From Octopus vulgaris (Eukaryota), in the NCBI GenBank assembly GCA_951406725.2, contig OX597822.1, positions 107,074,001 through 107,138,000 of the forward strand: a DNA stretch of 64,000 nucleotides. Reading direction: 5' to 3'. The notes beneath the pieces are model-generated. The model did no database searches. It had not been told where the DNA came from and saw only the letters and a program-made list of their open reading frames with translations. This document shows positions 14,675 to 15,695 of this stretch, in pieces. Position 1 is the first letter of the stretch, and each line of letters begins with the position of its first letter. Position numbers and translations under genes: made by a program.

Positions 14675-14838
14675 ATTGCAGCGTGGAAGGTGTTTGTAAG
14701 CCATTTAAGGAACACACAAAAGCCGTTCGATTCACTTCAACATTTAAGTTTAATTTGTCAAAATATTTTCTTCGCCTTAGGACCGCGACCTGTTCACAGA
14801 CCAAAATCCGTGCTGCATCTCATGATGCAGCACGGAGC
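14675..14838 (-). mobile_element. Penelope-like terminal repeat fragment with hammerhead (copy 1)
   Basis: Homologous to 15560-15695; hammerhead topology at 14752-14815; ends in the fold-back ccgtgctgcatc-tcat-gatgcagcacgg. Confidence 0.6.
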
Positions 14839-14839
14839 C

Positions 14840-15050
14840 AAGTGGCGGAATCGTTAGTACGCTCGACAAAATACTAAGCGGTATTTCTTCTGGCGTGTTA
14901 TGTTCTCAGTTCAAGTGCTGCCAACGTCAACTTTACTTTTGATCCTTTTGAAGTCCATGAAAATAGTACTAGTCAAGTATTGGACCCGATGTTATCCAGT
15001 TATCTCCTCTCTTCAACATAACTAACCTTGTGCCAAAATTAGAAAGAATT
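14840..15050 (+). mobile_element. Old SINE-B with alternative tail
   Basis: Diverged SINE-B head and core ending ccttgtgccaaaattagaaa. Confidence 0.65.
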
Positions 15051-15499
15051 CGTGGTTTGGAGGGATTAGCTCTGGATTAACCTTCAATACAAGACCCAGG
15101 GGCGACATATTCGACAGTAAATTTTTAGAACATGAAGAGATACACGGTGTTTTCCTCTTATGGTTTTTAAATTCTACAGAACATAAATGGATATAAAAAT
15201 TAAGTCAACTTGATTAAGAGGCACATGAGTAAAAACACACTTGTTAATATGTAACATCAGCAACATGCATGAAAATACTATTAAACTCAGTAATAATTAT
15301 TTGCTCAAACAACACTATTATTCTTTAGCCGTGTAGCATCTGAAGTCTTGAAGCAACGAAATAATTGCTCCTAATATTGGATAACAAACCTCGCAATAGT
15401 AAAATGTTTCCCTTTCCTCGATCACCCGTTGATTAGTTAGATACAGGTATGGCACCGATTTTACAGAATCCTCTTTTAGATCGGATAAAGTTACGACTT

Positions 15500-15695
15500 A
15501 CGGAGATGTACTTGCATAGCGAGTGACTTGATCTGAGATTGTGTGCTGGAGTGAAAACGATTGTAGAGTGGAAGGTGTTTATAAGCCATTTATAAACCGT
15601 TAGATTCACTTCAACATTAAAATTTAATTTGTTAAAATATTTTCGTCGCTTTGAGACGCGACCTGTTCACTGACAAAACTTCGTGCTGCATCTCT
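15500..15695 (-). mobile_element. Penelope-like terminal repeat fragment with hammerhead (copy 2)
   Basis: Minus: ttttgtca-GTGAACA-g-gtcgc N8 gcgac-GAAA-atat-tt-taacaaa. Confidence 0.62.

Follow-up and report, generated by a model that had tools for sequence, protein, structure and literature searches.

A natural, family-wide G3-C8 hammerhead motif in the pseudo-LTRs of a Penelope-like element of Octopus vulgaris

Minimal type I hammerheads are carried by the pseudo-LTRs (pLTRs) of metazoan Penelope-like elements (PLEs) (Cervera and de la Pena 2014, PMC4209133), where their function has been called unclear (Craig et al. 2021, PMC8557442). Core positions 3 and 8 are known to covary in nature, with U3-A8 in several examples (Perreault et al. 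2011, PMC3088659). The natural core variants of PMC4209133 are U3-A8 as well, plus one U3-G8 row, and there is no G3-C8 row in the covered parts of its Fig. S3 text. In PAc, the Poseidon element of the green anole, the natural pair is C3-G8, and G3-C8 is described only as an engineered C3G/G8C change that partly restores cleavage in a protein-dependent manner; uncut RNA is the main insertion substrate of that element, and internal starts of reverse transcription (RT) at two ORF sites define its tail (PMC11167929). Our comparison covers parts of each of these four papers. A natural G3-C8 PLE family was not found in the literature searched, where the pair occurs in engineered mutants only; Lünse et al. 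2017, outside that search, reportedly surveys variant hammerheads of PLEs on a very large scale. Set against natural U3-A8 and engineered G3-C8, the octopus family described here appears to carry, naturally and family-wide, a core otherwise seen in laboratory mutants: where the variants of PMC3088659 are U3-A8, G3-C8 is fixed here in thousands of copies.

The window, that is the whole 64-kb stretch of DNA analysed, had been reported in an earlier note to contain two hammerhead motifs on the minus strand, each with its own stem mismatches and both with G3 and C8. Both are present where they had been placed: exactly two instances of the pattern GTGANCA-N0-2-GTCGC were counted across the window, the average over 100 shuffles being 0.03 and no shuffle reaching two. 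Copy A is a full short element (15498-15694, minus strand; blastn match to positions 1-209 of the unit at locus L143, 81%) made of an extra 5′ G, a pLTR with the hammerhead motif, the start of an ORF and a tail, with a small internal deletion. Its motif, recognised by sequence and folding (15628-15677, minus strand), runs from stem I through the core G3-U4-G5-A6-A7-C8-A9, an inserted G and stem II to G12-A13-A14, the palindrome AAUAUU and U17; the second pair of stem I is broken by a G>A change. The swapped core pair is formed by G3 at 15670 and C8 at 15665, and hammerhead numbering predicts cleavage after U17 of a UUU triplet, between 15634 and 15635 (minus strand). At 15498-15589 (minus strand) lies what is left of the opening ~30 codons of the PLE ORF, the last ~58 nt of which form the tail; at loci L143, L132 and L128 this tail is the ORF start and runs on into the ORF. 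A TSD-like 8-mer upstream of copy A (15697-15704, minus strand) is repeated at 15491-15498.

Copy B (14672-14821, minus strand; unit positions 1-147, 91%) is a tail-less short element of another subfamily, and its 3′ end corresponds to the proposed inner RT start site. The motif (14754-14804, minus strand; sequence and folding) keeps G3 (14797) and C8 (14792), with two changes in stem I and a C11.1>A change that breaks G10.1-C11.1; no hammerhead fold was predicted for it. Its 3′ end adjoins a (TA)n microsatellite (14630-14671), the usual target of its family. On the other side, a 13-bp inverted stub of the element 5′ end (14824-14836, plus strand) lies head-to-head with it, an arrangement identified from the sequence as an inversion of PLE type. 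Copies A and B have unrelated DNA and no ORF between them, which, together with the difference in subfamily, rules the two out as a dimer pair. Since the rest of the window contained no further piece of the PLE unit and no match to five PLE proteins, the two copies are identified as separate insertions of a PLE pLTR, independent and decayed. In an Rfam scan of the window, no hammerhead was found among the 150 matches listed out of 363 at E≤10.

With copy A as query, 2,216 candidates were obtained in the genome (2.8 Gb, 227 contigs), 40 of which were scored, and an element of ~205 bp was delimited. The exact 18-nt G3-C8 core was found in 6,616 genome copies, and the exact pattern of core, stem II and helix III in 5,063; the reversed controls gave 0 in both searches. 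A repeat family with a minimal G3-C8 hammerhead motif and a palindromic helix III, as had been proposed, therefore exists, and the consensus first combined from the two window copies is that of the intact family master, found in thousands of copies. The prediction that a standard CUGANGA search would miss the family also held, as the canonical core with the same stem II had only 3 genome matches, all from another family. Such descriptors thus miss more than 6,600 motifs of one family in one genome, so that counting hammerheads, or claiming 'no hammerhead', calls for a core description in which positions 3 and 8 are treated as a pair.

Among the sampled loci, 137 of 273 distinct copies shared a common 5′ start base, in a sample biased towards intact motifs. 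The 3′ ends clustered at 144-150 and 202-206, about 58 nt apart. Flanks of (TA)n were frequent, as were copies paired head-to-head in which one arm has the tail and the other lacks it, and the subfamilies sampled ranged in divergence from about 13% (oldest) to 0.6-0.7% (youngest).

Upstream, 428 copies extend into a ~1-kb (TACA)-rich 3′ UTR and then into an ORF. This ORF has RT motifs with YVDD, a CxxxCxxC Cys linker and, C-terminally, a GIY-YIG domain (PF01541, E 9e-5, above the cut-off); Pfam gave no RT hit on it, the RT assignment being based on the motifs and on the label of the homologue P0003, and a PDB sequence search gave nothing meaningful. At L143, an inverted truncated copy is followed by motif, ATG, ORF and motif. 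The two motifs, 4,261 bp apart, mark a partial tandem forming pLTRs, and the ORF is interrupted by one stop and two frameshifts. When 20 loci were picked by ORF similarity, the motif was present in 18, with G3-C8 in 18/18, and the subfamily of the window type proved to be ORF-linked too (L154, L161, L164). The linked GIY-YIG/RT ORF that the earlier note had asked about is thus found in genomic relatives; the window has none, between the copies or elsewhere. From this sequence evidence we conclude that the ~205-bp repeat is the pLTR plus tail of an endonuclease-bearing (EN+) PLE, in line with the PLE repeats first suspected.

These data also bear on two other origins of the short element. Its ends, GAGATG...CATCTC, might suggest a MITE or another DNA transposon with 8-bp terminal inverted repeats, the hammerhead likeness being due to chance. 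That reading is refuted by ORF linkage, the repeat being contiguous with the RT/GIY-YIG ORF on both sides; moreover, copies are seen truncated at the 5′ side or inverted and stop at either of two 3′ sites, so that neither independence from an ORF nor ends fixed by inverted repeats was observed, and homologues carry canonical cores. We give it practically no credence. A retrozyme-like unit, in which dimers of neighbouring or tandem copies would be cleaved into monomers and circles, is improbable as well. The palindromic helix III would suit it, and so would the tandem full units, which place two motifs on one RNA (L143), but the first base of copies lies 22 nt upstream of the core and not at the cut site, the motif is retained in full, paired copies lie mostly head-to-head on opposite strands, and the window pair combines different subfamilies with unrelated DNA between. 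No non-coding unit bounded by same-strand hammerheads with ends at cut sites was found.

The features expected of an EN+ PLE were all observed: an inverted 5′-truncated copy with a tail on one end only, a hammerhead motif in the pLTR, here with a swapped 3-8 pair, and a single ORF with RT and C-terminal GIY-YIG, the latter in genomic relatives outside the window. In the parts compared, the hammerheads of PMC4209133 have in common with the octopus motif the pLTR position, the extra nucleotide between 9 and 10.1, G10.1-C11.1, a short palindromic helix III (all A/U in D. virilis too) and a frequent U17, and their elements too are mostly solo truncated copies; their insert consensus is H, against G here, and no cephalopod is listed. 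With the Neptune/Nematis EN+ PLEs of PMC8557442, as far as that text was covered, the octopus element shares the C-terminal GIY-YIG, a CX2-5CxxC linker, (TA)n targeting, partial tandems, and the inverted 5′-truncated copy with its one-sided tail. Its tail measures ~58 nt against 30-40 in those PLEs, and the clade likeness is one of features, the tree being without named references. PAc falls in the Penelope/Poseidon clade, described there without Cys linker (PMC8557442). A Neptune-like ORF of the same genome was very distant from the PLE ORF in a quick, unlabelled tree of 25 rows. We take the parent, as a guess, to be of Nematis type. Family copies were also seen within or beside other PLE ORFs (Neptune-like, Penelope-like and of the sister family described below; L099, L108, L109 and L136), which suggests nested insertion in shared targets.

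The family master has the features of a minimal type I hammerhead, namely U4 G5 A6, A9, G12 A13 A14, A15.1-U16.1, H17 and G10.1-C11.1. The canonical letters C3 and G8 are absent from it, and Watson-Crick complementarity between 3 and 8 is present. In each of the subfamilies sampled, from the one about 13% diverged down to that at 0.6%, most copies were G3-C8. In the old subfamily (~13%), scored by position 8, C8 was found in 64/72 copies and G8 in 8/72; of 20 loci where both positions were read, 16 were G3-C8. Among copies that had lost G3 (100 listed of 109, hand count) A was found in 62, T in 27 and C in 11, with no C3-G8; among those without C8 (100 listed of 258, hand count) T, G and A were found in 45, 39 and 16. 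Covariation of the 3-8 pair is thus, on the copies read, nil inside the family and exists only between families: in 16 hand-picked rows from three families the pair was kept in 16/16 (GC 8, CG 7, UG 1). The swap first called compensatory deserves the word between families and not across copies of this one, and with only three lineages no statistical case for covariation can be made.

Unpaired G3-G8 was found in 232 copies, far above the expectation from the G>C rate at position 3, and G8 copies were more diverged (4.1% vs 2.6%, p 0.016). G3-G8 as an ancestral intermediate was not upheld, since G8 copies were outnumbered in the oldest subfamily sampled as well (8/72). Of the inverted pairs at the G3-G8 loci L202-L231, some carry G8 in the two arms alike and others combine a G8 arm with a C8 arm. 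Subfamily-diagnostic changes were found at 4/8 sites of loop II versus 1/42 sites of stems and core (p 0.0014), the sole stem/core change being U-A to U-G; compared with the rest of the element (14/156 diagnostic sites), the 1/42 of stems and core was not significantly lower (p 0.20).

Two related families supply the other core states. The older, about 25% diverged (L061-L063, L171-L200), has stems I and II in common with the G3-C8 family, with C3 or U3, G8 and U17; no PLE ORF was found within 1.5 kb at 33 of its loci (two duplicates). The sister PLE family (SH-aLRT 97 in the quick 25-row tree) is ORF-linked, with about 50-56% protein identity and C3-G8, and has 4,166 core matches. C9 replaced A9 in 88 of its 100 listed matches, and most sister loci read also carry a stem I mismatch; in some A9 copies the motif is canonical throughout, having C17 and a perfectly paired stem I of 5 bp. 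The sister PLE is very young, several copies being 100% identical, and at the loci read (L201:1813-1855, L232-L261, L442-L453) the C9 majority is young while some A9 copies are canonical. Since so young a PLE carries an uncompensated A9C, an intact core seems unnecessary for spread, and the sister family apparently represents hammerhead decay in a still-spreading element. Related elements of this genome carry matched natural forms of the motif, namely a canonical one, one swapped to G3-C8 and one with A9C.

Stems I and II, the absence of which from the family consensus would have told against a hammerhead, were predicted in intact copies (z -3.6 and -2.6). The palindromic helix III is present but very weak, the all-A/U dimer helix amounting to only -0.2 kcal/mol. 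A G3-U17 wobble lengthens stem I and gains 1.3 kcal/mol in stability over the open core. G3-C8 with C17 was less active than with G17, according to a 'data not shown' remark (PMC3884650). Based on this remark, we suggest that U17 would be an enabling background in which the G3-C8 swap can persist: in the absence of C17, G3 could not be trapped.

Insertions were next considered for a trace of cleavage. No excess of 5′ ends was found at the predicted cut site (33/100 listed copies versus 16/50 in a control window, p 1.0, hand counts), and the apparent excess disappeared against that control, in which 50 of 100 listed rows had been left out as insertion variants, leaving 50 true truncations; a second control window, confounded by small indels and CpG decay, was not used. 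A G was present at -1, a position at which C or T stands in the genomic template, in 43/63 short copies and in 25/40 short copies that were not picked by similarity (five long copies included in the 40). Such an extra G would be cap-derived, added when uncut, capped RNA is copied to its 5′ end, and the short copies likely derive from uncut capped transcripts. Transcription would start about 22 nt upstream of the core, at AGATG. The element protein would bind the RNA and start reverse transcription internally, at one of two ORF positions, about 33 and 92 nt from its beginning, which would yield the tail-less and tailed ends. Internal initiation on uncut RNA would account for both 3′ ends and for the intact motif. 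As each 3′ pLTR could yield a short transcript, it would also be understandable that ~205-bp copies far outnumber full elements.

This resembles PAc, where in the parts of the text compared the hammerhead adjoins the start codon and cleaved RNA shows no sign of being used; the predicted cut lies 56 nt before the ATG here and after it in PAc (PMC11167929). A tiny spliced leader is another possible source of the 5′ end, since a sequence resembling a branch point and 3′ splice site (L143:4495-4522) ends at the fixed 5′ end of short copies, similar to the intron adjoining helix I in D. virilis Penelope. A GAG|GT donor was not found in four long copies.

The best reading of these results is that the predicted hammerhead cleavage is dispensable for insertion; the action of the hammerhead would be confined to a minor fraction of RNAs or to a late stage of the cycle. 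The partial rescue by engineered C3G/G8C in a PLE hammerhead leads us to lean, by a modest preference, towards slow cleavage by the family master motif, probably helped by the element protein or by another copy. A remnant motif, catalytically dead or of no relevance, in a PLE that spreads uncut and reached G3-C8 by drift plus one stabilising change, its fold retained as a protein-binding or promoter element or by hitchhiking, appears rather unlikely, though several results speak for it: the uncompensated A9C of the young sister, in which a fully canonical motif is found among A9 copies, the missing genomic footprint of cleavage, the competing G3-U17 pair, the G3-G8 copies on both arms of some insertions, and insertion in vitro that needs no cleavage, according to the part of PMC11167929 compared. 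It explains less well that the only two core changes are both partners of one tertiary pair, with Watson-Crick pairing restored, and that U4-G5-A6, A9, G12-A13-A14, A15.1-U16.1 and G10.1-C11.1 stayed fixed across subfamilies while loop II turned over. Weighing both, we put slow or assisted activity somewhat ahead of even chances, and the remnant at roughly a third or a little less. Going beyond slow, assisted cleavage, G3-C8 might have been selected, giving a ribozyme that is slow by design, assisted by protein and fixed both in an autonomous PLE and in thousands of self-copying mini-elements; with the sister, which would have drifted from a canonical core to A9C, it would form a natural series of PLEs tuning down or shedding their ribozyme. 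We put this forward tentatively, as less probable than not.

The element is present in contigs from public runs that carry four organism labels. G3/C8 was visible in the loose-end consensus of three of these runs, with limited sensitivity near both positions. The public-run records list no RNA run as holding the element, and the contigs give neither ends nor strand. A metagenome scan for the swapped core, covering 4 of 64 parts, let 0/120 loci through the stem filter. In the octopus genome, other hammerhead-like motifs were seen in unrelated repeats (L074, L094, L120, L251), among them some that have a U3-A8 core and CCGG as their palindromic helix III. The window itself contains copies, partly tandem, of a common SINE-like repeat (12964-13211 and 17866-18478), presumably an octopus SINE; long ORFs resembling two non-LTR retrotransposons, endonuclease/RT-like (25337-29316, minus strand, and 39522-44031, plus strand); and long inverted repeats around (TA)n runs (60517-60630 and 34487-34571), which attract spurious miRNA hits.
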